Shown here: piece by piece, positions 18,270 to 51,197 of the stretch
Position numbering within the stretch: the stretch's first letter is position 1
How the letters are laid out: the number at the start of each line of letters is the position of its first letter
NCBI GenBank assembly: GCA_032718475.1
Contig: JAUCBJ010008420.1
Coordinates: forward strand, 35,897-99,896
DNA from: Nemertoderma westbladi
Lineage: Eukaryota; Animalia; Xenacoelomorpha
Reading direction: 5' to 3'
DNA length: 64,000 nt
Notes under the pieces: model-generated
The model's input: only the letters and a program-made list of their open reading frames with translations
What the model was told of the DNA's origin: nothing
The model's database searches: none
Translations under genes and position numbers: made by a program

Positions 18270-18359
18270 ATAAAAAATCTTCGAAACACGTCTGTAAGTT
18301 CTGTGGTCGAGGTTGTGCGAAACCAAGTGTTCTCGAAAAGCACATCCGTAGTCACACAG
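18270..18359 (+). CDS. shn: Schnurri/HIVEP-like ZF transcription factor, internal exon A (ZF1)
   Basis: tttgcag|ATAAA...CACACAG|gttggt; translates [29 protein letters not shown], the first finger of the N-terminal HIVEP/Schnurri pair. Phase 1-1. Confidence 0.9.
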
Positions 18360-18830
18360 GTTGGTTGCTATGTATTAGAGTGAATGATGGATGGATGGAT
18401 GGGCACGGATGGGTTGGTGTACGTAGTACTGAAGAGCGAGTCAAGCAGTACTTCCAATGGGTAGCACTATAAGGCTGTTAAATGTTTGACTCATGAATAT
18501 ATACAAACTATTAGGAATTATATTTATTTATTTATAAAGCACGTTATAAGTAAATAAACCTTACCGGTAGGTGTGTTGTGTTAGTACCAAAGTATGTAAA
18601 AAACTAAAAAGACCTAGACGTTGCATGCAATCAGTGATCAGCTGACAGCAGCCAGCTGATCGGCAGGTTTCGCCCCGCAGCTGAAGGCATTCTCGGGAGG
18701 CCAAGCCAGGAAATGTAGAGAGAAATTCACAACATAGTACATAATAAATATTCACAATATAATACATAATAAATATAATTCACATTTCACAATATTATAC
18801 AAACATGTAAAATTAAATTCTGTCATTCGT

Positions 18831-21800
18831 TCTCTGTTATTCAGGAGAACGTCCTTACCCTTGCCTTCCTTGCGGGCTTTCATTGTTCTGTTTTTCAGGA
18901 GAACGTCCTTACCCTTGCGTTCCTTGCGGACTTTCATTGTTCTGTTTTTCAGGAGAACGTCCTTACCCTTGCGTTCCTTGCGGGCTTTCATTGTTCTGTT
19001 TTTCAGGAGAACGTCCTTACCCTTGCCTTCCTTGCGGACTTTCATTGTTCTGTTTTTCAGGAGAACGTCCTTACCCTTGCCTTCCTTGCGGGCTTTCATT
19101 GTTCTGTTTTTCAGGAGAACGTCCTTACCCTTGCCTTCCTTGCGGGCTTTCATTGTTCTGTTTTTCAGGAGAACGTCCTTACCCTTGCCTTCCTTGCGGA
19201 CTTTCATTGTTCTGTTATTCAGGAGAACGTCCTTACCCTTGCCTTCCTTGCGGGCTTTCATTGTTCTGTTTTTCAGGAGAACGTCCTTACCCTTGCCTTC
19301 CTTGCGGGCTTTCATTGTTCTGTTTTTCAGGAGAACGTCCTTACCCTTGCCTTCCTTGCGGGCTTTCATTGTTCTGTTTTTCAGGAGAACGTCCTTACCC
19401 TTGCCTTCCTTGCGGGCTTTCATTGTTCTGTTTTTCAGGAGAACGTCCTTACCCTTGCGTTCCTTGCGGGCTTTCATTGTTCTGTTTTTCAGGAGAACGT
19501 CCTTACCCTTGCCTTCCTTGCGGGCTTTCATTGTTCTGTTTTTCAGGAGAACGTCCTTACCCTTGCCTTCCTTGCGGGCTTTCATTGTTCTGTTTTTCAG
19601 GAGAACGTCCTTACCCTTGCCTTCCTTGCGGGCTTTCATTGTTCTGTTTTTCAGGAGAACGTCCTTACCCTTGCCTTCCTTGCGGACTTTCATTGTTCTG
19701 TTATTCAGGAGAACGTCCTTACCCTTGCCTTCCTTGCGGGCTTTCATTGTTCTGTTTTTCAGGAGAACGTCCTTACCCTTGCCTTCCTTGCGGGCTTTCA
19801 TTGTTCTGTTTTTCAGGAGAACGTCCTTACCCTTGCCTTCCTTGCGGACTTTCATTGTTCTGTTATTCAGGAGAACGTCCTTACCCTTGCCTTCCTTGCG
19901 GGCTTTCATTGTTCTGTTTTTCAGGAGAACGTCCTTACCCTTGCCTTCCTTGCGGGCTTTCATTGTTCTGTTTTTCAGGAGAACGTCCTTACCCTTGCCT
20001 TCCTTGCGGACTTTCATTGTTCTGTTTTTCAGGAGAACGTCCTTACCCTTGCCTTCCTTGCGGGCTTTCATTGTTCTGTTTTTCAGGAGAACGTCCTTAC
20101 CCTTGCCTTCCTTGCGGGCTTTCATTGTTCTGTTTTTCAGGAGAACGTCCTTACCCTTGCCTTCCTTGCGGACTTTCATTGTTCTGTTTTTCAGGAGAAC
20201 GTCCTTACCCTTGCCTTCCTTGCGGGCTTTCATTGTTCTGTTTTTCAGGAGAACGTCCTTACCCTTGCCTTCCTTGCGGACTTTCATTGTTCTGTTTTTC
20301 AGGAGAACGTCCTTACCCTTGCCTTCCTTGCGGACTTTCATTGTTCTGTTATTCAGGAGAACGTCCTTACCCTTGCCTTCCTTGCGGACTTTCATTGTTC
20401 TGTTTTTCAGGAGAACGTCCTTACCCTTGCCTTCCTTGCGGGCTTTCATTGTTCTGTTTTTCAGGAGAACGTCCTTACCCTTGCCTTCCTTGCGGACTTT
20501 CATTGTTCTGTTATTCAGGAGAACGTCCTTACCCTTGCCTTCCTTGCGGACTTTCATTGTTCTGTTTTTCAGGAGAACGTCCTTACCCTTGCGTTCCTTG
20601 CGGGCTTTCATTGTTCTGTTTTTCAGGAGAACGTCCTTACCCTTGCCTTCCTTGCGGACTTTCATTGTTCTGTTTTTCAGGAGAACGTCCTTACCCTTGC
20701 CTTCCTTGCGGACTTTCATTGTTCTGTTTTTCAGGAGAACGTCCTTACCCTTGCCTTCCTTGCGGGCTTTCATTGTTCTGTTTTTCAGGAGAACGTCCTT
20801 ACCCTTGCCTTCCTTGCGGGCTTTCATTGTTCTGTTTTTCAGGAGAACGTCCTTACCCTTGCCTTCCTTGCGGGCTTTCATTGTTCTGTTTTTCAGGAGA
20901 ACGTCCTTACCCTTGCGTTCCTTGCGGGCTTTCATTGTTCTGTTTTTCAGGAGAACGTCCTTACCCTTGCCTTCCTTGCGGACTTTCATTGTTCTGTTTT
21001 TCAGGAGAACGTCCTTACCCTTGCCTTCCTTGCGGACTTTCATTGTTCTGTTTTTCAGGAGAACGTCCTTACCCTTGCCTTCCTTGCGGGCTTTCATTGT
21101 TCTGTTTTTCAGGAGAACGTCCTTACCCTTGCCTTCCTTGCGGGCTTTCATTGTTCTGTTTTTCAGGAGAACGTCCTTACCCTTGCGTTCCTTGCGGACT
21201 TTCATTGTTCTGTTTTTCAGGAGAACGTCCTTACCCTTGCGTTCCTTGCGGGCTTTCATTGTTCTGTTTTTCAGGAGAACGTCCTTACCCTTGCGTTCCT
21301 TGCGGACTTTCATTGTTCTGTTTTTCAGGAGAACGTCCTTACCCTTGCGTTCCTTGCGGACTTTCATTGTTCTGTTTTTCAGGAGAACGTCCTTACCCTT
21401 GCGTTCCTTGCGGGCTTTCATTGTTCTGTTTTTCAGGAGAACGTCCTTACCCTTGCCTTCCTTGCGGACTTTCATTGTTCTGTTTTTCAGGAGAACGTCC
21501 TTACCCTTGCCTTCCTTGCGGACTTTCATTGTTCTGTTTTTCAGGAGAACGTCCTTACCCTTGCCTTCCTTGCGGGCTTTCATTGTTCTGTTTTTCAGGA
21601 GAACGTCCTTACCCTTGCCTTCCTTGCGGGCTTTCATTGTTCTGTTTTTCAGGAGAACGTCCTTACCCTTGCCTTCCTTGCGGGCTTTCATTGTTCTGTT
21701 TTTCAGGAGAACGTCCTTACCCTTGCGTTCCTTGCGGGCTTTCATTGTTCTGTTTTTCAGGAGAACGTCCTTACCCTTGCCTTCCTTGCGGACTTTCATT

Positions 21801-23798
21801 GTTCTGTTTTTCAGGAGAACGTCCTTACCCTTGCCTTCCTTGCGGACTTTCATTGTTCTGTTTTTCAGGAGAACGTCCTTACCCTTGCCTTCCTTGCGGG
21901 CTTTCATTGTTCTGTTTTTCAGGAGAACGTCCTTACCCTTGCCTTCCTTGCGGGCTTTCATTGTTCTGTTTTTCAGGAGAACGTCCTTACCCTTGCGTTC
22001 CTTGCGGACTTTCATTGTTCTGTTTTTCAGGAGAACGTCCTTACCCTTGCCTTCCTTGCGGGCTTTCATTGTTCTGTTTTTCAGGAGAACGTCCTTACCC
22101 TTGCCTTCCTTGCGGGCTTTCATTGTTCTGTTTTTCAGGAGAACGTCCTTACCCTTGCCTTCCTTGCGGGCTTTCATTGTTCTGTTTTTCAGGAGAACGT
22201 CCTTACCCTTGCCTTCCTTGCGGGCTTTCATTGTTCTGTTTTTCAGGAGAACGTCCTTACCCTTGCGTTCCTTGCGGACTTTCATTGTTCTGTTTTTCAG
22301 GAGAACGTCCTTACCCTTGCCTTCCTTGCGGGCTTTCATTGTTCTGTTTTTCAGGAGAACGTCCTTACCCTTGCCTTCCTTGCGGACTTTCATTGTTCTG
22401 TTTTTCAGGAGAACGTCCTTACCCTTGCCTTCCTTGCGGACTTTCATTGTTCTGTTTTTCAGGAGAACGTCCTTACCCTTGCGTTCCTTGCGGACTTTCA
22501 TTGTTCTGTTTTTCAGGAGAACGTCCTTACCCTTGCCTTCCTTGCGGGCTTTCATTGTTCTGTTTTTCAGGAGAACGTCCTTACCCTTGCCTTCCTTGCG
22601 GGCTTTCATTGTTCTGTTTTTCAGGAGAACGTCCTTACCCTTGCCTTCCTTGCGGGCTTTCATTGTTCTGTTTTTCAGGAGAACGTCCTTACCCTTGCGT
22701 TCCTTGCGGGCTTTCATTGTTCTGTTTTTCAGGAGAACGTCCTTACCCTTGCCTTCCTTGCGGGCTTTCATTGTTCTGTTTTTCAGGAGAACGTCCTTAC
22801 CCTTGCGTTCCTTGCGGACTTTCATTGTTCTGTTTTTCAGGAGAACGTCCTTACCCTTGCCTTCCTTGCGGGCTTTCATTGTTCTGTTTTTCAGGAGAAC
22901 GTCCTTACCCTTGCGTTCCTTGCGGGCTTTCATTGTTCTGTTTTTCAGGAGAACGTCCTTACCCTTGCCTTCCTTGCGGGCTTTCATTGTTCTGTTTTTC
23001 AGGAGAACGTCCTTACCCTTGCGTTCCTTGCGGACTTTCATTGTTCTGTTTTTCAGGAGAACGTCCTTACCCTTGCCTTCCTTGCGGGCTTTCATTGTTC
23101 TGTTTTTCAGGAGAACGTCCTTACCCTTGCGTTCCTTGCGGGCTTTCATTGTTCTGTTTTTCAGGAGAACGTCCTTACCCTTGCCTTCCTTGCGGGCTTT
23201 CATTGTTCTGTTTTTCAGGAGAACGTCCTTACCCTTGCGTTCCTTGCGGGCTTTCATTGTTCTGTTTTTCAGGAGAACGTCCTTACCCTTGCCTTCCTTG
23301 CGGGCTTTCATTGTTCTGTTTTTCAGGAGAACGTCCTTACCCTTGCGTTCCTTGCGGGCTTTCATTGTTCTGTTTTTCAGGAGAACGTCCTTACCCTTGC
23401 CTTCCTTGCGGGCTTTCATTGTTCTGTTTTTCAGGAGAACGTCCTTACCCTTGCGTTCCTTGCGGACTTTCATTGTTCTGTTTTTCAGGAGAACGTCCTT
23501 ACCCTTGCCTTCCTTGCGGGCTTTCATTGTTCTGTTTTTCAGGAGAACGTCCTTACCCTTGCGTTCCTTGCGGACTTTCATTGTTCTGTTTTTCAGGAGA
23601 ACGTCCTTACCCTTGCGTTCCTTGCGGGCTTTCATTGTGCTGTTTTTCAGGAGAACGTCCTTACCCTTGCCTTCCTTGCGGGCTTTCATTGTTCTGTTTT
23701 TCAGGAGAACGTCCTTACCCTTGCGTTCCTTGCGGACTTTCATTGTTCTGTTTTTCAGGAGAACGTCCTTACCCTTGCCTTCCTTGCGGACTTTCATT
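18831..23798 (+). repeat. 54-bp tandem array (92 acceptor copies); unit is a 3' splice site plus the first 40 nt of exon B
   Basis: Unit gttctgtttttcag|GAGAACGTCCTTACCCTTGC(C/G)TTCCTTGCGG(G/A)CTTTCATT. First AG at 18843-18844, last at 23757-23758; distance 4914 = 91 x 54. No indels. Confidence 0.97.
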
Positions 23799-23919
23799 TA
23801 AGACGAAATCCAACCTTTATAAACACGAGAAGAGCCACGCACACGCTGGTAAGATGGTAGATGATGACGAGGATATTAGTGCTAGCGCTACAGAGAGTGG
23901 AGATGAGCCCGTTTTACCA
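23759..23919 (+). CDS. shn: Schnurri/HIVEP-like exon B (ZF2 plus acidic stretch), using the last acceptor of the array
   Basis: Translates (G)[53 protein letters not shown]|gttagt; [10 protein letters not shown] is diagnostic of HIVEP/Schnurri ZF2. An alternative donor G|gtaaga at 23849 is possible. Confidence 0.85.
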
Positions 23920-24419
23920 GTTAGTATCGACCTCACAGAGAATTATTTAAATTAATTACTCTATGTATTTTATGGTAAAATTCACTAAATTTGGAAATGT
24001 AATGGAAATATGGACATGAGATTTGAGAAACAAACGTCAATATATAGCAATACATCATGTAAATGGTACCCATTGCAATGACGTTGAGCTCACCAAAGTG
24101 GCTCGCCTCGCACTCATATATACGTCGAGAGTCCTCTAATGGCAGAATGATGAATTTGGATATTTTTATGACTCTGCCAGTTTTTGGCAATCATGGTGAT
24201 TAATTCATGTTGTCATAGTTACACTGACTGCCAGGAGGAACATTATAGCTGCGCACCAACGTCTGTTTGTGGGTCTAATTTTCGCAAAGCCATTCGCTTT
24301 TTCTTTTTTTTGTTGGAATGTGTTAAATTTCAAGTAAAACTTTTGGTACCATTGGAATCGCCTTTCCATCTCTACAGTGATGGTGTAACCTGTACCTAAC
24401 TAAATACTAAGCTAATACG

Positions 24420-24720
24420 AGGGTAGTGGTAGTGAAGATGCGACAGGGATCGATAGTGGAGGAAAAAAGGGATTGCGGGAGTGGAAAAGGGATTAGGGGG
24501 TGAGACTTGGAAGAGTGCGGTGGAAGGAGTTGAGAAGGGGGTAGTTGGAGTGAAAAGGGGGTAAAGGGTGTGAGAGTGAATAAGGGATGGGGGTGGGGGT
24601 GGTGTGGTCGTAGGCGTGAAGAAGGGGATATAGTTGGAGTGAAAAAGAGGTTTAGTGGGAGTAAAGTACATTAGGGGATGAAGATGGTTGCAATGGGAGT
24701 GAATAAGGGATAGACCGAAG
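24420..24720. repeat. Purine/G-rich low-complexity tract with degenerate ggagtgaa(a/t)aaggg units
   Basis: Strong G/A strand bias with recurring ggagtgaaaaggg and gagtgaataagggat motifs. Confidence 0.5.
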
Positions 24721-25317
24721 AAAGAGATCCACTGCCCTCATGAGGAAGCTTAGTAGGTAGAATAAATACTGTAATAATTAACTTATCTGCATTACCTCAA
24801 TTTGTCCACCAAATGTCCACTGCGAAATGCATTTACAGTAGGGAACATTTTGAGGAGAATCAACCTACAGTTTGTTGCTGATTCACCTTTTCTCCCGTGG
24901 TGGAGAGGATGCTCTTGTGTTTGCATCAGGTACCTGCAGCAGCTGTACCAGGCGTCTGCATAGCGTCTGCTTAGCGTCTACACCCTTAACCTTAACCAGT
25001 GTCATTTCAGAAAGCTAATTTACAGTGCATTCTTATCATTATTATCGTCTCCATTCAACTGTATATCGCTTATGGATTTTACCCAAACTGCGGTTTTTGT
25101 CAATATTTTTTTACCTTAGGACTTCATTCATCTCATCTGGCTGGAAAAATATCACCATTGAATTCCACAATGAACATATGCGCCATGGTGGTATGATTTT
25201 CAGATCTTGGGGATGGAATATTGCTCTTATTTACGTCATTCGTACAGAGTTCCATCACAGCGCTGCGTTTCATTTGCGGCTCAAAGTAAACCTTTGATTT
25301 TTATTTGTGTTTTTCAG

Positions 25318-25477
25318 GAACCCAGTATTTATTACTCGGACGATGTAAGTTTCCCCAAGACGCAGACATCCACACCGATCGCATTAACAAGCACACCACG
25401 ACTTCGGGAAGCTCTCGGCTCTCATTCCAACTCTATGTACATTCCCACTTCGACTCTGTCTACAACCATTGCACTGG
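25318..25477 (+). CDS. shn: Schnurri/HIVEP-like exon C (Ser/Thr-rich linker)
   Basis: gtgtttttcag|GAACCC...CACTGG|gttagt, open frame EPSIYYSDDVSFPKTQTSTPIALTSTPRLREALGSHSNSMYIPTSTLSTTIAL. Phase 0-1 bridges exon B to exon D exactly. Confidence 0.65.
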
Positions 25478-31890: not shown

Positions 31891-31968
31891 ATAAGCCTTT
31901 TATAATTATTCTTTATTTATCTTTAAATTATATTAAAAATTTTAGGTAAAATCAAGACAACTTTACTA

Positions 31969-36200: not shown

Positions 36201-39200
36201 CCGCTGATACAGACGAGTAAATCGCATCCCTATGTCACCTACCAGCACAAGAAGTTCTCCGCCATCGATACACGAGTGAGTACTCCTGCTGACGTCACTG
36301 TATCGGATCATCGAGTGGGGCACTCAGTCACTGACGCTCAGACAGAGTATTCGGGCGCGACGCGCAGGAAGTTGACTCCCATCCCATTAGTTCCTCGCAA
36401 TGAGCAGCGTGTGGGTCGTGATGAGCAGTTTGCGATACCAAGTCGCGACGAACTCGTTGTTACAACGGTATCTCCCGATGAACGGTTTGCGGGTCGCGAT
36501 TCACGGTTCGTCAGTCTTGATGAGCGGATTGCAACAACAACTCGAGATGAGCGGTTGTCTGGCTACCATGTGGTTGCTGCAGACTGCTCGACGCCATCCC
36601 CCGTGGCTTCAGAATCCACCCTTCACACCGCCACCCGGTTATCCACAGCCCCTGCCACCTTTCCATCCGAACATGTGGCTGTTACACACCACGTTGCAGA
36701 GGCACCCAAACCGTTTGTCCCACAAGAGCAAAAGATAGAGCGGGTATTGGGAGGTGGGCACCATGCCCTGCGCCCAAATGCCCCCACCCTGCCGCCCCAC
36801 ATACAAGCCATCCCGTTGCAGTACTACTTACAGAACTACTACTCACCTGCACTCGCATACCAACACTATCAACATTATCCAACCCTCAAACACCACTACA
36901 TCGCACCATCCAGCAGTGCGACACACCAATATAACAACCGACGTTTGGACACACCTTACACTGTGGCCCCCCTCCACGACTATCAGACTCTGGTAAACGG
37001 TTCCTCAGCTCTGCTCCAACCAGTGTTCCAATCCAACCGGACATTCGTGCCCCAGACTTTCCCTGTAGCCGCCTACCCCCATGGCCACATGGCCAATGAG
37101 CACCCAGTTACTACCTACATGCCAGCTAGCATCTATCTGTCTCATCTTTCTGCTGTTCAACAAACAGGACACACTAGAGTGGATGCGAAGTTGCCCATCG
37201 GTTCAAAGTTACCCGGAGAATCGCACGTGGAGGGATTTGGTCGTGGTGTAGCTGGTGTTGAGTCTCGTAGGCGTGTCGATGTCCAGGCAGAACCCAGTAT
37301 GGTCCGCGGCGATTCCGGTGTGGTCCGATCTGAAGACAGTATTGTCCGAGTTGACTCTGGAGTGGTCCGAGTTGACCCAGGAATGGTCCGAGCTGATTCT
37401 GGAATTGTCCGACTCGATTCAGGAATTGTGCGATCTGACGCCGGTATGGTCCGAGTTGACCCAGGACTAGTCCGAATTGACCCAGGATTGATCCGAGCTG
37501 ATTCTGGAATGGTACGAGGTGACTCAGGAATGCTCCGTACGGAATCCGCCATGCGTACTGAGTCATCACGTCAGTCCAACGACTCCGGCACAATTCAGTG
37601 CAGTTTGTGTGGCCACCGTGGCCCGGACGAGTCGGACATGCAGCGCCACTACCGGGACGTCCACGGAAGTCAACCAGCCCGCATCCACGGTTGCTATGAC
37701 TGCAACGTATCTTTCCGTTCCCGCGGACACCTCCTCAAACACGAGCGTAGCCAGACTCACCTATCGCGTCTCGAGTCGGTAACTGTAGTTACTTCATCCA
37801 CGGACCCGCGCCCCTTCAAGTGCAATGGATGTAAAACTGCATTCCGTATCCCGGGCCACCTCGCCAAACATCTCCGATCAAAATGTCACGCCAACATGTT
37901 GTCGCGCTACGGGAAACCACCGTCGATGGACGCCAGCGATCTGTGTATTGGTAAGGACCAGCTGGGGGACTTGGATCCGGGCGATTCAGACATATCCGGT
38001 AGTGATTATGAGAGCGATAGTTTCGCCGACGAGTCCTCTCCGACCAGCAGTTACGCCGCCAGTACCTACTCGGTGATCCGTTCCCCGAGAGGAGCGCTCA
38101 CTCCCAGTGGCTACTCCGCCCCCTCTGGATACACACCAGGTGTCCACACCACCACCGGTTATACATCAGGTACCCCTAGTGGCTATATTTCAGTTCCCCT
38201 TGGTGGTTTTTCCTCAGCCACTGCTGATGGCTACACATCCGCAATTAAAAACAGTTTTGCTAGCGCGACTAACGCCAGTGACGCGCTGGGAAGGGATAAT
38301 TTAATGACTTACAGCGGCAATAATGCCGTGAGTAGCAGCACTGCCGCATCTGTAGGTCTGGTGGCCGTTAATTCAGTCCCTTCCTACACAAGGGCCCCAC
38401 CTGACAGTATTCTGCATCGATCCCTCACAGTGAGTCCGCGGCACCGAGCACATCCTGTCCACGGATCTCTACAGAATATCAGACTGAACCCGACCTGGGA
38501 CCCGCCAACGCGAACCATCCCTTCCCTGATCGCTATGCCACCTTTCCAGTTGTCGGGACGACGCTCGGCTCAGTTCCATAGCGGCACGGTTACCATGGCA
38601 GCCGAGTACAAACCCAGCGACGAGGCGGCCCCAATCCACCGCACCGAGAACAAACACCACGTGTCGCCGAGTGTTGGAGTCTCCGTCACCGCGGGCTGGT
38701 TGGCCCACGATGGGGGCAGTACTGGGGATCGGCCGCATTCACATCCAAACATCGCAGCTGATCCCCTCCCCGTTCCCAAAGAAATATCTGTGTCGGTTGA
38801 TTCCAGAGCACGCAGCGCTCCTTTGCGCAATTCAGTGGTTCGAGAAGGAATCTTGAATATAGGTTTTGGGCAGGAATCCGGTATCTACAAGCGCCTCCAT
38901 TCCCTGTCCGATTCCGATATCGCGGAAGGTGAGACTCCGTTGCGGAATCTGTCTCAGACACTGAGTGTCCCGGACCTCTGCACACAGGCGCTCCCAGCCC
39001 CGGAGCTCACAGGAGAACCATCGATGGGTGGTAGGGAAGCGTCTCAGATAGACCCCAGCCAACCCAATCGCTGCCCCCAGTGCCATAAACTGTTTAAGAA
39101 TGCGGGATATGTCCGTAAACACATCGAGACGGTTCACATCAACCGCAAACAATTCAAGTGCTCCGAACAAGAGTGCAATAGGGAATACTCGAGCAAGGAA

Positions 39201-39208
39201 GCCCTCAG
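33214..39208 (+). CDS. shn: Schnurri/HIVEP-like giant exon D (about 6 kb)
   Basis: Lies within the 2031-aa ORF; bounded by ttttccag|ACATGG and CTCAG|gttggt. Contains the C2HC finger CSMCG..THQKFYC; the hallmark FEGGYKSNETYVYVRGRGRGKYVCKECGIRCKKPSMLRKHIRSH..FKTKGNLTKHLKSKTH pair with an acidic tract; the Schnurri-type C-terminal triplet including DPRPFKC..C..AFRIPGHLAKHLRSK.H; and the start of an extra finger cluster. Confidence 0.95.
37290..37560 (+). repeat. Degenerate 21-bp coding repeat, about 12 x D(S/P)G(M/I/V/L)VRx
   Basis: Protein reads MVRGDSGVVRSEDSIVRVDSGVVRVDPGMVRADSGIVRLDSG... Confidence 0.8.
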
Positions 39209-39455
39209 GTTGGTACTACTAACTCATTATTCTTATATAGATATAGTGTTGGCCTATTCGAATACATGATATTATTATTTATTACTATTGCATTAACAGC
39301 TCAACTCCAATTTACTCGAATAAATGACAATAACTTACGCCTACGAGCGCCCGTGAACTGTAATCGTAATCCCCTACTTGCTTGCACTACACAGCGTCTT
39401 ATGTGGGTTAACTGGGTGGAGCTAACTATAAACATATCCGTTTTGTTTTCTTTAG

Positions 39456-39614
39456 GTACCACATCATCACCCACCAACGAGTAAAGCCCCATCAGTGTGA
39501 GGATTGTTCCAGAACATTCGCTTCCCTCTCCCAACTCAAACTGCATATGAGCAGCCATGTCGCCGATCGGCCATGGGTCTGTAAATATTGCTCCAAAAGC
39601 TTTAAATTACAGAG
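39456..39614 (+). CDS. shn: Exon E (extra C2H2 fingers)
   Basis: ttctttag|GTACCAC...CAGAG|gtaatt. Completes CSEQECNREYSSKEALR|YHIITH, then encodes CEDCSRTFASLSQLKLHMSSH and CKYCSKSFKLQ. Phase 2-2. Confidence 0.9.
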
Positions 39615-40392: not shown

Positions 40393-40525
40393 TACACTCA
40401 AACAACACACCCAGAGCCACTCCGAATCTGGTGACGATTTCACTACATCGCATAGTTGCAAGATTTGTTCGGAATCATTCCCGACTTCGCAGCTGCTCAT
40501 TCTACATTTTAGGAGACACACCCAG
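40393..40525 (+). CDS. shn: Exon F (extra C2H2 fingers), ending at the first donor of the 50-bp array
   Basis: ccatttag|TACACTC...ACCCAG|gtaagt; translates (S)TLKQHTQSHSESGDDFTTSHSCKICSESFPTSQLLILHFRRHTQ and completes the finger begun in exon E. Phase 2-0. Confidence 0.88.
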
Positions 40526-43500
40526 GTAAGTGTAATGTTAAGTGGTGAGCATTCTGTTTTAGGAAACACACCCAGGTAAGTGTAATGTTAAGTGGTGAGC
40601 ATTCTGTTTTAGGAAACACACCCAGGTAAGTGTAATGTTAAGTGGTGAGCATTCTGTTTTAGGAAACACACCCAGGTAAGTGTAATGTTAAGTGGTGAGC
40701 ATTCTGTTTTAGGAAACACACCCAGGTAAGTGTAATGTTAAGTGGTGAGCATTCTGTTTTAGGAAACACACCCAGGTAAGTGTAATGTTAAGTGGTGAGC
40801 ATTCTGTTTTAGGAAACACACCCAGGTAAGTGTAATGTTAAGTGGTGAGCATTCTGTTTTAGGAAACACACCCAGGTAAGTGTAATGTTAAGTGGTGAGC
40901 ATTCTGTTTTAGGAAACACACCCAGGTAAGTGTAATGTTAAGTGGTGAGCATTCTGTTTTAGGAAACACACCCAGGTAAGTGTAATGTTAAGTGGTGAGC
41001 ATTCTGTTTTAGGAAACACACCCAGGTAAGTGTAATGTTAAGTGGTAAGCATTCTGTTTTAGGAAACACACCCAGGTAAGTGTAATGTTAAGTGGTGAGC
41101 ATTCTGTTTTAGGAAACACACCCAGGTAAGTGTAATGTTAAGTGGTGAGCATTCTGTTTTAGGAAACACACCCAGGTAAGTGTAATGTTAAGTGGTGAGC
41201 ATTCTGTTTTAGGAAACACACCCAGGTAAGTGTAATGTTAAGTGGTGAGCATTCTGTTTTAGGAAACACACCCAGGTAAGTGTAATGTTAAGTGGTGAGC
41301 ATTCTGTTTTAGGAAACACACCCAGGTAAGTGTAATGTTAAGTGGTAAGCATTCTGTTTTAGGAAACACACCCAGGTAAGTGTAATGTTAAGTGGTGAGC
41401 ATTCTGTTTTAGGAAACACACCCAGGTAAGTGTAATGTTAAGTGGTGAGCATTCTGTTTTAGGAAACACACCCAGGTAAGTGTAATGTTAAGTGGTGAGC
41501 ATTCTGTTTTAGGAAACACACCCAGGTAAGTGTAATGTTAAGTGGTGAGCATTCTGTTTTAGGAAACACACCCAGGTAAGTGTAATGTTAAGTGGTGAGC
41601 ATTCTGTTTTAGGAAACACACCCAGGTAAGTGTAATGTTAAGTGGTGAGCATTCTGTTTTAGGAAACACACCCAGGTAAGTGTAATGTTAAGTGGTGAGC
41701 ATTCTGTTTTAGGAAACACACCCAGGCAAGTGTAATGTTAAGTGGTGAGCATTCTGTTTTAGGAAACACACCCAGGTAAGTGTAATGTTAAGTGGTGAGC
41801 ATTCTGTTTTAGGAAACACACCCAGGTAAGTGTAATGTTAAGTGGTGAGCATTCTGTTTTAGGAAACACACCCAGGTAAGTGTAATGTTAAGTGGTGAGC
41901 ATTCTGTTTTAGGAAACACACCCAGGTAAGTGTAATGTTAAGTGGTGAGCATTCTGTTTTAGGAAACACACCCAGGTAAGTGTAATGTTAAGTGGTGAGC
42001 ATTCTGTTTTAGGAAACACACCCAGGTAAGTGTAATGTTAAGTGGTAAGCATTCTGTTTTAGGAAACACACCCAGGTAAGTGTAATGTTAAGTGGTGAGC
42101 ATTCTGTTTTAGGAAACACACCCAGGTAAGTGTAATGTTAAGTGGTGAGCATTCTGTTTTAGGAAACACACCCAGGTAAGTGTAATGTTAAGTGGTGAGC
42201 ATTCTGTTTTAGGAAACACACCCAGGTAAGTGTAATGTTAAGTGATAAGCATTCTGTTTTAGGAAACACACCCAGGTAAGTGTAATGTTAAGTGGTGAGC
42301 ATTCTGTTTTAGGAAACACACCCAGGTAAGTGTAATGTTAAGTGGTGAGCATTCTGTTTTAGGAAACACACCCAGGTAAGTGTAATGTTAAGTGGTGAGC
42401 ATTCTGTTTTAGGAAACACACCCAGGTAAGTGTAATGTTAAGTGATAAGCATTCTGTTTTAGGAAACACACCCAGGTAAGTGTAATGTTAAGTGGTGAGC
42501 ATTCTGTTTTAGGAAACACACCCAGGTAAGTGTAATGTTAAGTGGTGAGCATTCTGTTTTAGGAAACACACCCAGGTAAGTGTAATGTTAAGTGGTGAGC
42601 ATTCTGTTTTAGGAAACACACCCAGGTAAGTGTAATGTTAAGTGGTGAGCATTCTGTTTTAGGAAACACACCCAGGTAAGTGTAATGTTAAGTGGTGAGC
42701 ATTCTGTTTTAGGAAACACACCCAGGTAAGTGTAATGTTAAGTGGTGAGCATTCTGTTTTAGGAAACACACCCAGGTAAGTGTAATGTTAAGTGGTGAGC
42801 ATTCTGTTTTAGGAAACACACCCAGGTAAGTGTAATGTTAAGTGGTGAGCATTCTGTTTTAGGAAACACACCCAGGTAAGTGTAATGTTAAGTGGTGAGC
42901 ATTCTGTTTTAGGAAACACACCCAGGTAAGTGTAATGTTAAGTGGTGAGCATTCTGTTTTAGGAAACACACCCAGGTAAGTGTAATGTTAAGTGGTGAGC
43001 ATTCTGTTTTAGGAAACACACCCAGGTAAGTGTAATGTTAAGTGGTGAGCATTCTGTTTTAGGAAACACACCCAGGTAAGTGTAATGTTAAGTGGTGAGC
43101 ATTCTGTTTTAGGAAACACACCCAGGTAAGTGTAATGTTAAGTGGTGAGCATTCTGTTTTAGGAAACACACCCAGGTAAGTGTAATGTTAAGTGGTGAGC
43201 ATTCTGTTTTAGGAAACACACCCAGGTAAGTGTAATGTTAAGTGGTGAGCATTCTGTTTTAGGAAACACACCCAGGTAAGTGTAATGTTAAGTGGTGAGC
43301 ATTCTGTTTTAGGAAACACACCCAGGTAAGTGTAATGTTAAGTGGTGAGCATTCTGTTTTAGGAAACACACCCAGGTAAGTGTAATGTTAAGTGGTAAGC
43401 ATTCTGTTTTAGGAAACACACCCAGGTAAGTGTAATGTTAAGTGGTGAGCATTCTGTTTTAGGAAACACACCCAGGTAAGTGTAATGTTAAGTGGTGAGC

Positions 43501-46500
43501 ATTCTGTTTTAGGAAACACACCCAGGTAAGTGTAATGTTAAGTGGTGAGCATTCTGTTTTAGGAAACACACCCAGGTAAGTGTAATGTTAAGTGATAAGC
43601 ATTCTGTTTTAGGAAACACACCCAGGTAAGTGTAATGTTAAGTGGTGAGCATTCTGTTTTAGGAAACACACCCAGGTAAGTGTAATGTTAAGTGGTGAGC
43701 ATTCTGTTTTAGGAAACACACCCAGGTAAGTGTAATGTTAAGTGGTGAGCATTCTGTTTTAGGAAACACACCCAGGTAAGTGTAATGTTAAGTGGTGAGC
43801 ATTCTGTTTTAGGAAACACACCCAGGTAAGTGTAATGTTAAGTGGTGAGCATTCTGTTTTAGGAAACACACCCAGGTAAGTGTAATGTTAAGTGGTGAGC
43901 ATTCTGTTTTAGGAAACACACCCAGGTAAGTGTAATGTTAAGTGGTGAGCATTCTGTTTTAGGAAACACACCCAGGTAAGTGTAATGTTAAGTGGTAAGC
44001 ATTCTGTTTTAGGAAACACACCCAGGTAAGTGTAATGTTAAGTGGTGAGCATTCTGTTTTAGGAAACACACCCAGGTAAGTGTAATGTTAAGTGGTGAGC
44101 ATTCTGTTTTAGGAAACACACCCAGGTAAGTGTAATGTTAAGTGGTGAGCATTCTGTTTTAGGAAACACACCCAGGTAAGTGTAATGTTAAGTGATAAGC
44201 ATTCTGTTTTAGGAAACACACCCAGGTAAGTGTAATGTTAAGTGGTGAGCATTCTGTTTTAGGAAACACACCCAGGTAAGTGTAATGTTAAGTGGTGAGC
44301 ATTCTGTTTTAGGAAACACACCCAGGTAAGTGTAATGTTAAGTGGTGAGCATTCTGTTTTAGGAAACACACCCAGGTAAGTGTAATGTTAAGTGGTGAGC
44401 ATTCTGTTTTAGGAAACACACCCAGGTAAGTGTAATGTTAAGTGGTGAGCATTCTGTTTTAGGAAACACACCCAGGTAAGTGTAATGTTAAGTGGTGAGC
44501 ATTCTGTTTTAGGAAACACACCCAGGTAAGTGTAATGTTAAGTGGTGAGCATTCTGTTTTAGGAAACACACCCAGGTAAGTGTAATGTTAAGTGATAAGC
44601 ATTCTGTTTTAGGAAACACACCCAGGTAAGTGTAATGTTAAGTGGTGAGCATTCTGTTTTAGGAAACACACCCAGGCAAGTGTAATGTTAAGTGGTGAGC
44701 ATTCTGTTTTAGGAAACACACCCAGGTAAGTGTAATGTTAAGTGGTGAGCATTCTGTTTTAGGAAACACACCCAGGCAAGTGTAATGTTAAGTGGTGAGC
44801 ATTCTGTTTTAGGAAACACACCCAGGTAAGTGTAATGTTAAGTGGTGAGCATTCTGTTTTAGGAAACACACCCAGGTAAGTGTAATGTTAAGTGGTAAGC
44901 ATTCTGTTTTAGGAAACACACCCAGGTAAGTGTAATGTTAAGTGATAAGCATTCTGTTTTAGGAAACACACCCAGGTAAGTGTAATGTTAAGTGGTGAGC
45001 ATTCTGTTTTAGGAAACACACCCAGGTAAGTGTAATGTTAAGTGGTAAGCATTCTGTTTTAGGAAACACACCCAGGTAAGTGTAATGTTAAGTGATAAGC
45101 ATTCTGTTTTAGGAAACACACCCAGGTAAGTGTAATGTTAAGTGGTGAGCATTCTGTTTTAGGAAACACACCCAGGCAAGTGTAATGTTAAGTGATAAGC
45201 ATTCTGTTTTAGGAAACACACCCAGGTAAGTGTAATGTTAAGTGGTGAGCATTCTGTTTTAGGAAACACACCCAGGCAAGTGTAATGTTAAGTGGTGAGC
45301 ATTCTGTTTTAGGAAACACACCCAGGTAAGTGTAATGTTAAGTGATAAGCATTCTGTTTTAGGAAACACACCCAGGTAAGTGTAATGTTAAGTGGTGAGC
45401 ATTCTGTTTTAGGAAACACACCCAGGTAAGTGTAATGTTAAGTGGTGAGCATTCTGTTTTAGGAAACACACCCAGGCAAGTGTAATGTTAAGTGATAAGC
45501 ATTCTGTTTTAGGAAACACACCCAGGTAAGTGTAATGTTAAGTGGTGAGCATTCTGTTTTAGGAAACACATCCAGGTAAGTGTAATGTTAAGTGGTGAGC
45601 ATTCTGTTTTAGGAAACACACCCAGGTAAGTGTAATGTTAAGTGGTGAGCATTCTGTTTTAGGAAACACACCCAGGTAAGTGTAATGTTAAGTGATAAGC
45701 ATTCTGTTTTAGGAAACACACCCAGGTAAGTGTAATGTTAAGTGGTGAGCATTCTGTTTTAGGAAACACACCCAGGCAAGTGTAATGTTAAGTGGTGAGC
45801 ATTCTGTTTTAGGAAACACACCCAGGTAAGTGTAATGTTAAGTGGTGAGCATTCTGTTTTAGGAAACACACCCAGGCAAGTGTAATGTTAAGTGGTGAGC
45901 ATTCTGTTTTAGGAAACACACCCAGGTAAGTGTAATGTTAAGTGGTGAGCATTCTGTTTTAGGAAACACACCCAGGTAAGTGTAATGTTAAGTGGTGAGC
46001 ATTCTGTTTTAGGAAACACACCCAGGCAAGTGTAATGTTAAGTGGTGAGCATTCTGTTTTAGGAAACACACCCAGGTAAGTGTAATGTTAAGTGGTGAGC
46101 ATTCTGTTTTAGGAAACACACCCAGGTAAGTGTAATGTTAAGTGGTGAGCATTCTGTTTTAGGAAACACACCCAGGTAAGTGTAATGTTAAGTGGTGAGC
46201 ATTCTGTTTTAGGAAACACACCCAGGTAAGTGTAATGTTAAGTGGTGAGCATTCTGTTTTAGGAAACACACCCAGGTAAGTGTAATGTTAAGTGGTGAGC
46301 ATTCTGTTTTAGGAAACACACCCAGGTAAGTGTAATGTTAAGTGATAAGCATTCTGTTTTAGGAAACACACCCAGGTAAGTGTAATGTTAAGTGGTGAGC
46401 ATTCTGTTTTAGGAAACACACCCAGGCAAGTGTAATGTTAAGTGGTGAGCATTCTGTTTTAGGAAACACACCCAGGTAAGTGTAATGTTAAGTGGTGAGC

Positions 46501-49500
46501 ATTCTGTTTTAGGAAACACACCCAGGCAAGTGTAATGTTAAGTGGTGAGCATTCTGTTTTAGGAAACACACCCAGGTAAGTGTAATGTTAAGTGATAAGC
46601 ATTCTGTTTTAGGAAACACACCCAGGTAAGTGTAATGTTAAGTGGTGAGCATTCTGTTTTAGGAAACACACCCAGGCAAGTGTAATGTTAAGTGATAAGC
46701 ATTCTGTTTTAGGAAACACACCCAGGTAAGTGTAATGTTAAGTGGTGAGCATTCTGTTTAGGAAACACACCCAGGCAAGTGTAATGTTAAGTGGTGAGCA
46801 TTCTGTTTTAGGAAACACACCCAGGTAAGTGTAATGTTAAGTGATAAGCATTCTGTTTTAGGAAACACACCCAGGTAAGTGTAATGTTAAGTGGTGAGCA
46901 TTCTGTTTTAGGAAACACACCCAGGTAAGTGTAATGTTAAGTGGTGAGCATTCTGTTTTAGGAAACACACCCAGGCAAGTGTAATGTTAAGTGATAAGCA
47001 TTCTGTTTTAGGAAACACACCCAGGTAAGTGTAATGTTAAGTGGTGAGCATTCTGTTTTAGGAAACACACCCAGGTAAGTGTAATGTTAAGTGGTGAGCA
47101 CTGAGCATTCTGTTTTAGGAAACACACCCAGGTAAGTGTAATGTTAAGTGGTGAGCATTCTGTTTTAGGAAACACATCCAGGTAAGTGTAATGTTAAGTG
47201 GTGAGCATTCTGTTTTAGGAAACACACCCAGGTAAGTGTAATGTTAAGTGGTGAGCATTCTGTTTTAGGAAACACACCCAGGCAAGTGTAATGTTAAGTG
47301 ATAAGCATTCTGTTTTAGGAAACACACCCAGGTAAGTGTAATGTTAAGTGGTGAGCATTCTGTTTTAGGAAACACACCCAGGTAAGTGTAATGTTAAGTG
47401 GTGAGCATTCTGTTTTAGGAAACACACCCAGGCAAGTGTAATGTTAAGTGATAAGCATTCTGTTTTAGGAAACACACCCAGGCAAGTGTAATGTTAAGTG
47501 ATAAGCATTCTGTTTTAGGAAACACACCCAGGTAAGTGTAATGTTAAGTGGTGAGCATTCTGTTTTAGGAAACACACCCAGGTAAGTGTAATGTTAAGTG
47601 GTGAGCACTAAGCATTCTGTTTTAGGAAACACACCCAGGCAAGTGTAATGTTAAGTGATAAGCATTCTGTTTTAGGAAACACACCCAGGTAAGTGTAATG
47701 TTAAGTGGTGAGCATTCTGTTTTAGGAAACACACCCAGGCAAGTGTAATGTTAAGTGATAAGCATTCTGTTTTAGGAAACACACCCAGGTAAGTGTAATG
47801 TTAAGTGGTGAGCATTCTGTTTTAGGAAACACACCCAGGTAAGTGTAATGTTAAGTGGTGAGCATTCTGTTTTAGGAAACACACCCAGGCAAGTGTAATG
47901 TTAAGTGATAAGCATTCTGTTTTAGGAAACACACCCAGGCAAGTGTAATGTTAAGTGATAAGCATTCTGTTTTAGGAAACACACCCAGGTAAGTGTAATG
48001 TTAAGTGGTGAGCATTCTGTTTTAGGAAACACACCCAGGTAAGTGTAATGTTAAGTGGTGAGCACTGAGCATTCTGTTTTAGGAAACACACCCAGGTAAG
48101 TGTAATGTTAAGTGGTGAGCATTCTGTTTTAGGAAACACATCCAGGTAAGTGTAATGTTAAGTGGTGAGCATTCTGTTTTAGGAAACACACCCAGGCAAG
48201 TGTAATGTTAAGTGATAAGCATTCTGTTTTAGGAAACACACCCAGGTAAGTGTAATGTTAAGTGGTGAGCATTCTGTTTTAGGAAACACATCCAGGTAAG
48301 TGTAATGTTAAGTGGTGAGCATTCTGTTTTAGGAAACACACCCAGGTAAGTGTAATGTTAAGTGGTGAGCATTCTGTTTTAGGAAACACACCCAGGTAAG
48401 TGTAATGTTAAGTGATAAGCATTCTGTTTTAGGAAACACACCCAGGTAAGTGTAATGTTAAGTGGTGAGCATTCTGTTTTAGGAAACACACCCAGGCAAG
48501 TGTAATGTTAAGTGGTGAGCATTCTGTTTTAGGAAACACACCCAGGTAAGTGTAATGTTAAGTGGTGAGCATTCTGTTTTAGGAAACACACCCAGGCAAG
48601 TGTAATGTTAAGTGGTGAGCATTCTGTTTTAGGAAACACACCCAGGTAAGTGTAATGTTAAGTGGTGAGCATTCTGTTTTAGGAAACACACCCAGGTAAG
48701 TGTAATGTTAAGTGGTGAGCATTCTGTTTTAGGAAACACACCCAGGCAAGTGTAATGTTAAGTGGTGAGCATTCTGTTTTAGGAAACACACCCAGGTAAG
48801 TGTAATGTTAAGTGGTGAGCATTCTGTTTTAGGAAACACACCCAGGTAAGTGTAATGTTAAGTGGTGAGCATTCTGTTTTAGGAAACACACCCAGGTAAG
48901 TGTAATGTTAAGTGGTGAGCATTCTGTTTTAGGAAACACACCCAGGTAAGTGTAATGTTAAGTGGTGAGCATTCTGTTTTAGGAAACACACCCAGGTAAG
49001 TGTAATGTTAAGTGGTGAGCATTCTGTTTTAGGAAACACACCCAGGTAAGTGTAATGTTAAGTGATAAGCATTCTGTTTTAGGAAACACACCCAGGTAAG
49101 TGTAATGTTAAGTGGTGAGCATTCTGTTTTAGGAAACACACCCAGGCAAGTGTAATGTTAAGTGGTGAGCATTCTGTTTTAGGAAACACACCCAGGTAAG
49201 TGTAATGTTAAGTGGTGAGCATTCTGTTTTAGGAAACACACCCAGGCAAGTGTAATGTTAAGTGGTGAGCATTCTGTTTTAGGAAACACACCCAGGTAAG
49301 TGTAATGTTAAGTGATAAGCATTCTGTTTTAGGAAACACACCCAGGTAAGTGTAATGTTAAGTGGTGAGCATTCTGTTTTAGGAAACACACCCAGGCAAG
49401 TGTAATGTTAAGTGATAAGCATTCTGTTTTAGGAAACACACCCAGGTAAGTGTAATGTTAAGTGGTGAGCATTCTGTTTAGGAAACACACCCAGGCAAGT

Positions 49501-50583
49501 GTAATGTTAAGTGGTGAGCATTCTGTTTTAGGAAACACACCCAGGTAAGTGTAATGTTAAGTGATAAGCATTCTGTTTTAGGAAACACACCCAGGTAAGT
49601 GTAATGTTAAGTGGTGAGCATTCTGTTTTAGGAAACACACCCAGGTAAGTGTAATGTTAAGTGGTGAGCATTCTGTTTTAGGAAACACACCCAGGCAAGT
49701 GTAATGTTAAGTGATAAGCATTCTGTTTTAGGAAACACACCCAGGTAAGTGTAATGTTAAGTGGTGAGCACTGAGCATTCTGTTTTAGGAAACACACCCA
49801 GGTAAGTGTAATGTTAAGTGGTGAGCACTGAGCATTCTGTTTTAGGAAACACACCCAGGTAAGTGTAATGTTAAGTGGTGAGCATTCTGTTTTAGGAAAC
49901 ACATCCAGGTAAGTGTAATGTTAAGTGGTGAGCATTCTGTTTTAGGAAACACACCCAGGTAAGTGTAATGTTAAGTGGTGAGCATTCTGTTTTAGGAAAC
50001 ACACCCAGGCAAGTGTAATGTTAAGTGATAAGCATTCTGTTTTAGGAAACACACCCAGGTAAGTGTAATGTTAAGTGGTGAGCATTCTGTTTTAGGAAAC
50101 ACACCCATGTAAGTGTAATGTTAAGTGGTGAGCATTCTGTTTTAGGAAACACACCCAGGCAAGTGTAATGTTAAGTGATAAGCATTCTGTTTTAGGAAAC
50201 ACACCCAGGCAAGTGTAATGTTAAGTGATAAGCATTCTGTTTTAGGAAACACACCCAGGTAAGTGTAATGTTAAGTGGTGAGCATTCTGTTTTAGGAAAC
50301 ACACCCAGGTAAGTGTAATGTTAAGTGGTGAGCACTGAGCATTCTGTTTTAGGAAACACACCCAGGTAAGTGTAATGTTAAGTGGTGAGCATTCTGTTTT
50401 AGGAAACACATCCAGGTAAGTGTAATGTTAAGTGGTGAGCATTCTGTTTTAGGAAACACACCCAGGTAAGTGTAATGTTAAGTGGTGAGCATTCTGTTTT
50501 AGGAAACACACCCAGGCAAGTGTAATGTTAAGTGATAAGCATTCTGTTTTAGGAAACACACCCAGGTAAGTGTAATGTTAAGT
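40506..50583 (+). repeat. 50-bp tandem array (about 201 copies); unit is the end of exon F plus a 5' splice site
   Basis: Unit ttttag GAAACACACCCAG|gtaagtgtaatgttaagtggtgagcattctg. Donor positions run from 40526 to 50566 (10,040 bp; I count six +7 insertions and two -1 deletions, giving 200 intervals). Variants include ggcaag, gataag and tccagg. Confidence 0.97.
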
Positions 50584-50969
50584 AAGTGTTGAACATTCTG
50601 TCTGTATACACTTCTTTATATTATGTACTTAATATAGATTTGTTAAAGTGGCCTCGGTTATAATTTATTTCATGTGGAACCAATATCGGCATCCGCTAAT
50701 ATTGAATGTTGTTTGCATGCAACAGGCAATCCATAATAGCAATCCAATCCAACAGGCAACAGTTATCCATAATTTATTTATATATTATTATTATTATTAT
50801 TATTATTATTTATATTAATATATATAATTTATATATATGTGTAGTTTTCTTGTTTTCACATTTGTGAATGGATTGTCTCTCTATAATAAATTTATCATAG
50901 GGAGGGTAATACTTGATACTTTTTCCATTCGTTACTGGAGTTAACCATTAGTTAACCTTAAACATTTAG

Positions 50970-51197
50970 GAGAACCACCAAACCTCTACCAACTACAGAT
51001 GTTCTACCTGCAAAAAGTTGTTCGTCGGAAAGTTACAATACAAACAGCACGGTTGCGTTGGCGGCAAGGATGGCGGTTTCAAGTCTAGAGGTGGCGGACA
51101 AGTGGGTTCATTCCAATGCGAGTACTGCTGCAAACTGTTTGCGAGTCAGTATGGGTTGCAGAGTCATTGTCGCACTGCCCATAAACGGGGACATGTG
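50970..51197 (+). CDS. shn: Exon G (two further zinc fingers)
   Basis: catttag|GAGAAC...CATGTG|gtaaga; translates ENHQTSTNYRCSTCKKLFVGKLQYKQHGC...FQCEYCCKLFASQYGLQSHCRTAHKRGHV. Phase 0-0, compatible with exon F. Confidence 0.85.

Follow-up and report, generated by a model that had tools for sequence, protein, structure and literature searches.

How does one conserved regulatory gene come to carry two very large tandem arrays, each made of copies of one of its own splice junctions, and how is such a gene spliced? This question is raised by a locus of Nemertoderma westbladi, which we have analysed in a stretch of 64,000 nucleotides (the window) of contig JAUCBJ010008420.1. The two arrays, which repeat an acceptor junction (array 1) and a donor junction (array 2), comprise 15,043 bp, or 43% of the gene span, and contain 291 extra splice-like sites, in line with the about 15 kb and nearly 300 sites of the original prediction. 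All the features described below lie on the + strand.

The host gene and its exons

Judged by its finger domains and homologs, the gene is a member of the Schnurri/HIVEP family, and it appears otherwise intact. Our gene model begins at exon A (18270..18359; delimited by AG/GT edges, frame and homolog match), which encodes zinc finger 1 and the first base of the TGERPY linker; the start codon and exons further upstream lie outside the model. Exon B (23759..23848; 90 nt) encodes zinc finger 2, is bounded by the last acceptor copy of array 1, the use of which is predicted, and is phase-compatible with exon E (33214..39208; 5,995 nt). The latter is placed by protein matches and frame, with its 3' end given by a spliced joint in run X4, and contains a CCHC finger, finger pair 4-5, finger triplet 6-8 and the beginning of a further finger cluster. 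This C-terminal cluster includes exon F0 (39456..39614; 159 nt), both GT..AG joints of which are found in record 30 of X4, and is followed by exon F (40393..40525; 133 nt; X4 record 30 and frame), which ends at the first donor of array 2. Exon G (50970..51197; 228 nt; frame and AG/GT edges) encodes further fingers and is the predicted splice partner of exon F, and exon H (51469..53253; frame) is the last coding exon, running to the stop codon. Two short stretches (25120-25187 and 25318-25344) could be exons in phase with exon B, but were rejected since they end out of phase with exon E. The expectation that the other exons are intact is borne out by a frame check, in which exons E to H form 2,766 codons with the terminal stop as the only one, and by translation of exons A and B into the whole of finger pair 1-2.

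The family assignment of the original prediction is likewise upheld, as finger pairs 1-2 and 4-5 and triplet 6-8 all match the family. All 120 matches listed for the peptide of exons A and B lie near the N-termini of the homologs, with 62-85% identity. A protein search with finger pair 4-5 and the conserved block preceding it returned 1,596 hits at E<=0.001, and the named entries among the best 120 of these include shn, HIVEP3 and zinc finger protein 40. Triplet 6-8, which is of the invertebrate Shn type and located at about residues 1460-1560 of exon E, was found in 120/120 matches listed, the best (E 8e-28) being amphioxus entries. No close relative appeared in two protein searches (best 120 of 1,596 and of 369 hits), in which the best entries show 40-51% identity over most of the region. 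Drosophila Shn has finger pairs 1-2 and 4-5, a single CCHC finger and the 6-8 triplet (PMC10853822), all of which have counterparts here; unlike the Schnurri/HIVEP/SMA-9 proteins, however, the present gene contains at least six additional C2H2-pattern matches after triplet 6-8. From its family membership, the product may serve as a Smad cofactor in BMP/Dpp signalling.

Junctions associated with fingers are common in this gene (5/6 introns in the model), and thus the location of the array junctions at fingers is not special. Both had been placed in finger linkers, which is correct for the first, in the canonical TGERPY linker, but not for the second, which falls in a non-canonical spacer after a finger.

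Structure of the arrays and evidence from reads

Array 1 (18833..23798) was found by TRF as 92.0 copies of a 54-bp unit with 98% matches, at the intron/exon-B boundary as predicted. Its unit consists of about 14 nt of the intron end plus AG, and the first 40 nt of exon B, and occurs in 6 variants. All 92 copies carry the acceptor-like site CAG/GAGAAC, and 91/91 spacings are exactly 54 bp; there are no indels in 91 units, versus length variants in 8/200 of array 2. Read in the exon frame, the array is free of stops over 1,637 aa and forms an 18-residue half-finger repeat. In each unit, branch-like motifs of the yUnAy type occur at -41 and -16, no AG intervenes ahead of the following acceptor, and the value for the pyrimidine tract is 0.83, compared with 0.56-0.83 in the real acceptors of the gene; every unit resembles a complete 3' splice site, which points against a pure-passenger reading. 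Only the last acceptor copy continues into the remainder of finger 2. The acceptor that gives an intact finger 2 is accordingly a repeat-made copy, whose tract and branch-like motifs are supplied by the preceding unit, and 4.9 kb separate it from the original intron tail upstream. Use of the first acceptor, giving a 485-nt intron and a 5-kb exon, would not be absurd, as the gene tolerates a 6-kb exon, and any leak at array 1 would put 18-residue repeats between fingers 1 and 2. We rejected a reading of array 1 as a series of 14-nt GT..AG 'mini-introns', as the seam donor fits the consensus at only 2/9 positions.

Array 2 (40507..50583) was found by TRF as 200.7 copies (201 units) of a 50-bp unit with 97% matches, and again agrees with the predicted size and position at the exon-F/intron boundary. 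The unit takes in 19 nt of exon F, up to its end, together with the donor and some 31 nt of intron. The 201 donor-like sites are CAG/GT (166), CAG/GC (34) and CAT/GT (1), spaced at 50 (192), 57 (6) or 49 bp (2), and array 2 holds 166 of the 167 perfect consensus donors of the window, with one elsewhere. Along the array the consensus units drop from 22/25 to 9/25, and 28/34 GC donors are located in the distal half. Only the first donor is in frame with exon F; use of donor 2 is predicted to cause a frameshift, and that of donor 3 or 4 an added stop. An alternative reading, in which the unit is a 37-nt GT..AG intron plus a 13-nt micro-exon, is possible by sequence (pyrimidine fraction of the inner acceptor, 0.61), but was rejected as no array sequence follows exon F in record 30.

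A third young array (51648..52504; TRF, 30 bp x 28.6), located beyond the end of the range first described, encodes a Thr/Ser/Pro-rich decapeptide; it is an in-frame coding minisatellite wholly within exon H, 179 bp from any junction, and serves as an internal control. The gene also carries about 18 small arrays.

The repeats exist in the reads, and their lengths are given as assembled: copy numbers are assembly values, as no record spans either array and the aligned records cover only some two units of each. DNA contigs of runs X1 and X2 begin at 23769 and enter the unique sequence beyond array 1 after 30 bases, and those of X2 and X3 stop at 40536, 30 bases past the last exon-unique base. 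In the DNA runs the contigs are thus interrupted where the array edges were predicted, and depth accumulates over the repeat units. These three runs belong to studies P1 and P2; the assembly may itself derive from X1 and X2, and X3 and X2 share a sample. The depth excess on the units differs 5- to 20-fold between runs by rough scaling, contig depth not being copy number.

Evidence on splicing comes from record 30 of X4, a run listed as 'DNA?' and presumably RNA. This contig has two exact GT..AG joints at modelled exon edges, aligns over 40391-40526, and exits at the first donor of array 2, after which follow 147 unplaced letters. It is one contig from one run, the sample may lack array 2, and minor donor use could be missed, as assembled contigs drop rare forms. 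The suggestion of an isoform-producing device finds no support, as regards array 2, in this single spliced contig with its exit at donor 1, though minor use of other donors is possible. The mean depth of X4 in the last bin (15.5) equals that of record 30 alone (61.2 x 136/536), with no array 2 unit contig added. In the bin that covers exon B and the last part of array 1, for which no record is listed, the X4 depth is 0.79, and this sample may lack the array; 9-45 would be expected there if 92 units were retained at a transcript depth of 1-5. We take these depths as hints and give them no weight as evidence.

Origin, persistence and possible use of the arrays

That two independent junction-centred amplifications occurred in one gene is supported by the 16-mers, none of which is shared between arrays 1 and 2 or with the rest of the window. 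A transposon origin was rejected on the same absence of unit 16-mers elsewhere in the window, and as the units copy host exon edges. No unusual folding of the units was found relative to shuffles (z from -0.02 to +1.9 in 12/12 tests), and hairpin-driven expansion was discarded, as no unit folds better than its shuffles. Blocks that recur over 12 units (mean of 200 shuffles 5.4, maximum 9) and 32 units (mean of 200 shuffles 7.8, maximum 14), variant polarity and a mean pairwise unit difference of 1.8% and 2.0% in the two arrays are signs of ordinary minisatellite turnover; furthermore, the end copies diverge from the inner units.

The reading that we prefer, with a probability of about two in three, is that the arrays are two independent 'mirages', as such repeats are called in amphioxus, which probably expanded through slippage and unequal exchange, and which likely persist as near-neutral passengers, as the exon-adjacent copy is spliced. 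Each would have started as a 50-57-bp tandem duplication across an exon edge, possibly seeded at the short CATT motifs shared at the seams, a microhomology that is suggestive only (null frequency 9% and 4%), and copy number may vary between samples. Splicing of the exon-adjacent copy is seen in one contig for the donor and predicted for the acceptor; the last acceptor would be chosen by exon definition, favoured because no other copy defines an exon of 90 nt in which finger 2 is complete. The exit at the first donor in X4 fits the scanning model for the human F7 gene (PMC1557585), while 'neutral' may be too strong a word in view of the length effect of the ABCA7 repeat on exon skipping.

It was originally suggested that a lineage-specific mechanism amplifies junctions, and one may suppose that exon edges are favoured sites in this lineage for the origin or expansion of small duplications, DNA lesions coupled to transcription or splicing being one conceivable cause; junction arrays would then be enriched genome-wide. 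Two of the 3 young large arrays do straddle junctions (p 0.003-0.009 by position, post hoc), and mirages are perhaps a general phenomenon in the amphioxus group (PMC3087553). However, when all arrays of the gene are counted only 2/21 do so (0.30-0.39 expected, p 0.04-0.06), and just 2/16 exon edges examined are duplicated; at the other 14 the best 20-mer copies have 10-13 matches, within the null range, revealing no further duplicated junction. The excess over chance is weak for all 21 arrays and stronger, but post hoc, for the three young large ones. Moreover, the window was chosen because of the array feature itself, the sequence points to no mechanism, and such arrays have been described in both amphioxus and humans; a lineage-specific process is not supported. 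The junction bias is weak in this gene, and we consider a mutational bias quite unlikely. That the lengths are an assembly artefact, a short real repeat having been over-expanded by the assembler, seems most improbable: the lack of a record across either array, the identically repeated blocks, 12 and 32 units in length, which could be mis-joins, and the depth of X3, which suggests far fewer units, are set against contig breaks at the predicted edges in three runs of two studies, an X1 depth corresponding to roughly 88 and 250 units versus 92 and 201 assembled (a rough figure), and recurrent, positionally graded variants unlike a collapsed consensus.

Two other explanations assign the arrays an effect. 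Leaky or regulated acceptors of array 1 might insert n x 18 residues with CxxC half-fingers between fingers 1 and 2, detuning DNA binding by this pair while leaving the Smad-binding triplet intact, with the unit length of 54 held by selection against frameshifts. The 3n, stop-free and indel-free array could indeed reflect selection on a partly used acceptor, its branch-like motifs and tract are as strong as in the real acceptors of the gene, scanning is commonly held to take part in the choice of 3' splice sites (PMC1557585), fingers 1-2 are important in Drosophila (PMC10853822), and repeats at human exon edges can be kept as in-frame amino-acid repeats (PMC2812944). Nevertheless, we regard this as rather unlikely: RT-PCR showed splicing undisturbed by acceptor-side mirages in amphioxus (PMC3087553), a repeated GERP[YF]PCxxC occurs in 0/120 homologs listed, all of them distant, and by our estimate chance alone would give a 3n, stop-free unit in roughly one case out of 4, with few independent events. 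In the other explanation, the 15 kb and 166 perfect U1 sites shift expression, timing or skipping according to array length while the joined sites stay unchanged, as for the ABCA7 VNTR (PMC5954066). The concentration of consensus donors in array 2 and rough depth arithmetic, which hints at length differences between runs, are in its favour; but contig depth is not copy number, a length effect alone would not prove selection, and we hold it to be very unlikely.

It is unlikely, too, that array 1 functions as an in-frame ladder of acceptors, in which any of the 92 3' splice sites may be used and variable 18-residue repeats tune DNA binding in the BMP pathway. Its in-frame outcome would escape nonsense-mediated decay; use of upstream acceptors would make the product a repeat-tuned transcription factor, and one would expect a genome-wide rule by which acceptor mirages, but not donor mirages, are filtered for frame. 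In any case, the locus lends itself to the study of how a 3' splice site is chosen among 92 near-identical acceptors: under scanning that starts from the upstream donor the first should be used, and under exon definition the last.

Comparison with known junction-spanning repeats

The arrays are junction-spanning minisatellites, a kind already known from amphioxus and humans. Amphioxus mirages have been described in Adh3, the globins BflGb6/BflGb9, troponin C and PGBD5 (PMC3087553, PMC3902484). Like them, the present arrays consist of head-to-tail, minisatellite-sized units that cover their own exon-intron boundary, affect both 5' and 3' boundaries, keep the splice signals (92/92 CAG acceptors; 167/201 GT and 34/201 GC donors) and have the real junction in an end copy, the donor junction being supported by X4 and the acceptor junction deduced from the conserved finger pair. 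The diverged end copies also recall the mirage borders, which are excluded from homogenisation (PMC3087553). Normal splicing was reported in amphioxus, whereas here only the donor side is seen, in one spliced contig. Clusters in BflGb6 have 3-6 units of 81-100% identity, compared with 92 and 201 units of about 98% here, and as far as the available text of these papers goes, an acceptor and a donor array in one gene and an in-frame acceptor unit distinguish our locus. No acceptor-side array of such size was found in the literature searched (main texts, few subscription papers).

In humans, the intron 7 VNTR of F7 and the minisatellites of 6-16, CBS, LMNB2 and PDGF are comparable to array 2 (PMC1557585): their first unit straddles the end of the exon and is trailed by identical pseudo-donors, and splicing takes the donor furthest upstream, as in the X4 contig, although in 6-16 and CBS the next two donors are used as well. 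In the available text of that paper these have 5-25 copies, on the donor side only, versus 201 here, 166 of them with perfect consensus donors. The intron 18 VNTR of ABCA7, with alleles up to 10,678 bp (about 427 donor-bearing units), matches array 2 in size at its top allele, but its unit is described as starting at GT, without exon sequence; its second donor is used at a low level, and array length altered skipping of the next exon (PMC5954066). Internal tandem repeats at exon-intron boundaries, averaging about 4 units and either spliced out or kept in the protein, are also minisatellites at exon edges (PMC2812944), though they occur in recently duplicated human genes, whereas the regulator that carries ours is conserved and has no paralog in the window. 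Set beside these systems, the locus is an extreme yet recognisable case, in which 15 kb and 291 splice signals have entered a conserved developmental regulator and the normal donor is still picked in the one transcript seen.

Two junction arrays in a Schnurri-like gene

The window is dominated by two tandem arrays according to Tandem Repeats Finder: array 1 (18833-23798, forward strand; 54 bp x 92.0, 98% matches), whose units join an intron end to the start of exon B, and array 2 (40507-50583, forward strand; 50 bp x 200.7, 97% matches), whose units join the end of exon F to an intron start. The original prediction of a 92 x 54 bp acceptor array and a donor array of about 201 x 50 bp was thus confirmed by this program, as well as by unit parsing, which gave 92 acceptor-like sites in array 1, spaced by 54 bp throughout and falling into six unit variants, and 201 donor-like sites in array 2 (166 CAG/GT, 34 CAG/GC and one CAT/GT), spaced by 50, 57 and 49 bp. 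The arrays, predicted to add about 15 kb, measure 15,043 bp and take up 43% of the span of the gene; the introns holding arrays 1 and 2 would shrink to 485 and 404 nt, respectively, if the extra units were removed. There is no N in the window, and the copy numbers of 92.0 and 200.7 are putative, being assembled lengths.

The host gene model, which starts at exon A with the 5' start of the gene lying outside it, comprises exons A (18270-18359), B (23759-23848), E (33214-39208), F0 (39456-39614), F (40393-40525), G (50970-51197) and H (51469-53253), all on the forward strand. Exons A and B form a complete finger pair, the phase of B fits E, and exons E to H contain 2,766 codons with the terminal stop as the only one. 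Residues 600-900 of exon E matched 1,596 proteins; shn, HIVEP3 and zinc finger protein 40 are among the names carried by the best 120 of these. In local blastp, all 120 matched both the finger pair of A+B (62-85% identity) and finger triplet 6-8. The host is therefore a Schnurri-like gene, as had been proposed. According to PMC10853822, the layout of Drosophila Shn includes pair 1-2 and triplet 6-8, and the window gene has the same arrangement; that eight-finger layout is without the at least six further C2H2-pattern matches that lie past triplet 6-8 across exons E, F0, F and G (39060-51197, forward strand). No close relative was found among the full-length or shorter proteins in the listed best matches. 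Two short segments 3' of exon B (25120-25187 and 25318-25344, forward strand) resemble exons and have AG/GT edges; they are in phase with B, and joining them to E would break the phase unless a further exon lay between.

Several other elements were observed. Two consecutive long ORFs at 60158-64000 (forward strand) are broken by one stop (61709-61711) and include a 39-bp coding repeat (61371-61548); the second has a Pfam DUF1759 match (E 8.5e-10) and a zinc-knuckle-like end. By sequence they fit the gag of an LTR retrotransposon, presumably of the BEL/Pao type. In the B-E intron, 27655-32739 has a DNA-run depth of hundreds to thousands versus 20-90 on its flanks, corresponding to high-copy interspersed repeat(s). 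An ORF 5' of exon A (17049-17459, reverse strand), which weakly matches a YqaJ-like recombinase (E 6e-4, short of the Pfam cut-off), is probably a transposon remnant.

Array length and splice-site choice in sequencing runs

Four of the six matched runs (three studies; two runs possibly the assembly's own source) contain the whole stretch or a portion of it. Contigs of these four runs, X1-X4, of which X1-X3 are DNA, were aligned to 23700-40620, which includes about two units of each array. Contigs of X1 and X2 start at 23769, 30 bases ahead of the first exon-B-unique base, and those of X2 and X3 end at 40536, 30 bases past the last exon-F-unique base; these would be the breaks required of a 31-mer graph if the units repeat. 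Mean depths of the end bins on the array 1 and array 2 sides were as follows: in X1, 329 and 1041 versus an exon-E depth of 36; in X2, 108 and 398 versus 20-30; and in X3, 64 and 121. Contig depth is not copy number, and scaling gives only rough counts of array 1 and array 2 units: about 88 and 250 in X1, 29-42 and 113-167 in X2, and 6-14 and 12-27 in X3, a hint that array length varies between runs. X3 has mismatches at 30 of the 6,148 letters of 33090-39237 versus 0 of 6,573 in X2, both filed under one sample, which may reflect either a divergent haplotype or pooled individuals.

X4 is catalogued as 'DNA?'; we infer that it is RNA, because two GT..AG joints in its record 30 (1,374 letters at a depth of 61) coincide exactly with the modelled E/F0 and F0/F edges, and the depth of X4 in single-copy intron bins is nil. 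The record aligns to 40391-40526 and then departs, leaving 147 letters unplaced though the aligned stretch ran into array 2. Since the array continues there, the first of the 201 donors was used in this one contig, whose sample may be without array 2; contigs lose rare forms, so minor donor use is invisible in it. The unplaced letters are predicted to be exon G. Use of donor 2 would cause a frameshift, and a stop would follow from use of donor 3 or 4. At 40515 the exon copy has a base unlike the array 2 units; the X1 contig ends at 40514, and those of X2 and X3 reach 40536. This points to an Arg/Lys polymorphism in the exon, with the other allele identical to the array, and conversion of the exon by array sequence is possible.

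In each array 1 unit, yUnAy motifs lie at -41 and -16, the acceptor has no AG ahead of it, and the pyrimidine fraction is 0.83; judged from these letters, every unit would constitute a full 3' splice site. No stop interrupts array 1 in the exon frame over 1,637 residues; therefore, an upstream acceptor, if used, would add half-finger repeats of 18 residues each between fingers 1 and 2. Exon definition favours the last acceptor, the only one to yield an exon of 90 nt; the first would be preferred if splice sites paired across the intron. A real acceptor ladder is improbable, and owes what chance it has to the in-frame unit.

Origin, turnover and junction bias

No 16-mer is common to arrays 1 and 2, or to either of them and other parts of the window. 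The seam of each array falls at short, imperfectly aligned CATT-containing motifs common to exon and intron; random positions show seam-like matches in 9% and 4% of cases, so that seeding at these motifs may be regarded as suggestive. Within the strings of unit variants, blocks of 12 and of 32 units recur, each longer than in any of 200 shuffles, and consensus units along array 2 drop from 22/25 to 9/25, with 28 of its 34 GC donors in the distal half. Inner units differ in sequence from the end copies, and a five-copy array 1 variant, which holds the original intron tail and letters of the last exon copy, is probably the founding unit. No unusual folding was found in any unit of either array. 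This is ordinary minisatellite turnover.

A third young minisatellite, absent from the original prediction, lies in frame inside the last coding exon, H (51648-52504, forward strand; 30 bp x 28.6), and gives Schnurri a Thr/Ser/Pro-rich tail. Exon E has older degenerate 21-bp coding repeats (37344-37537 and 33619-33702, forward strand; 73% and 66% matches), evidence that minisatellites have arisen in this gene more than once.

The original prediction took two junction-centred amplifications in one gene as a sign of a junction-amplifying mechanism or a splice-site device. This interpretation has partial support: the presence of two unrelated junction arrays stands, but a bias towards junctions is not established. 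Two of the three young large arrays lie on junctions (positional chance 0.003-0.009, in a window chosen for this feature), and among all 21 distinct Tandem Repeats Finder arrays in the gene (score at least 40, period at least 10) two straddle junctions versus 0.30-0.39 expected (p 0.04-0.06). At the other 14 exon edges, including those of the two candidate small exons, local copies were all within the null range. The window is unable to establish a junction bias.

Comparison with known junction repeats

The arrays are very large minisatellites of the type called mirages in amphioxus, whose unit spans an exon-intron boundary, and are most likely tolerated passengers (probability about 0.68). 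Donor arrays of 5-25 copies occur in human F7, 6-16, CBS, LMNB2 and PDGF, with the first or first three donors used (PMC1557585); the ABCA7 VNTR has up to ~427 donor-bearing units, and more skipping of the next exon when longer (PMC5954066); and junction repeats in human duplicated genes have been catalogued (PMC2812944). Among the publications listed on junction repeats, we found neither an acceptor array of ~90 copies nor a gene with two arrays this large. What distinguishes the present case is the size of the arrays, the presence of both an acceptor and a donor array within a single gene, and an acceptor unit that is in frame.
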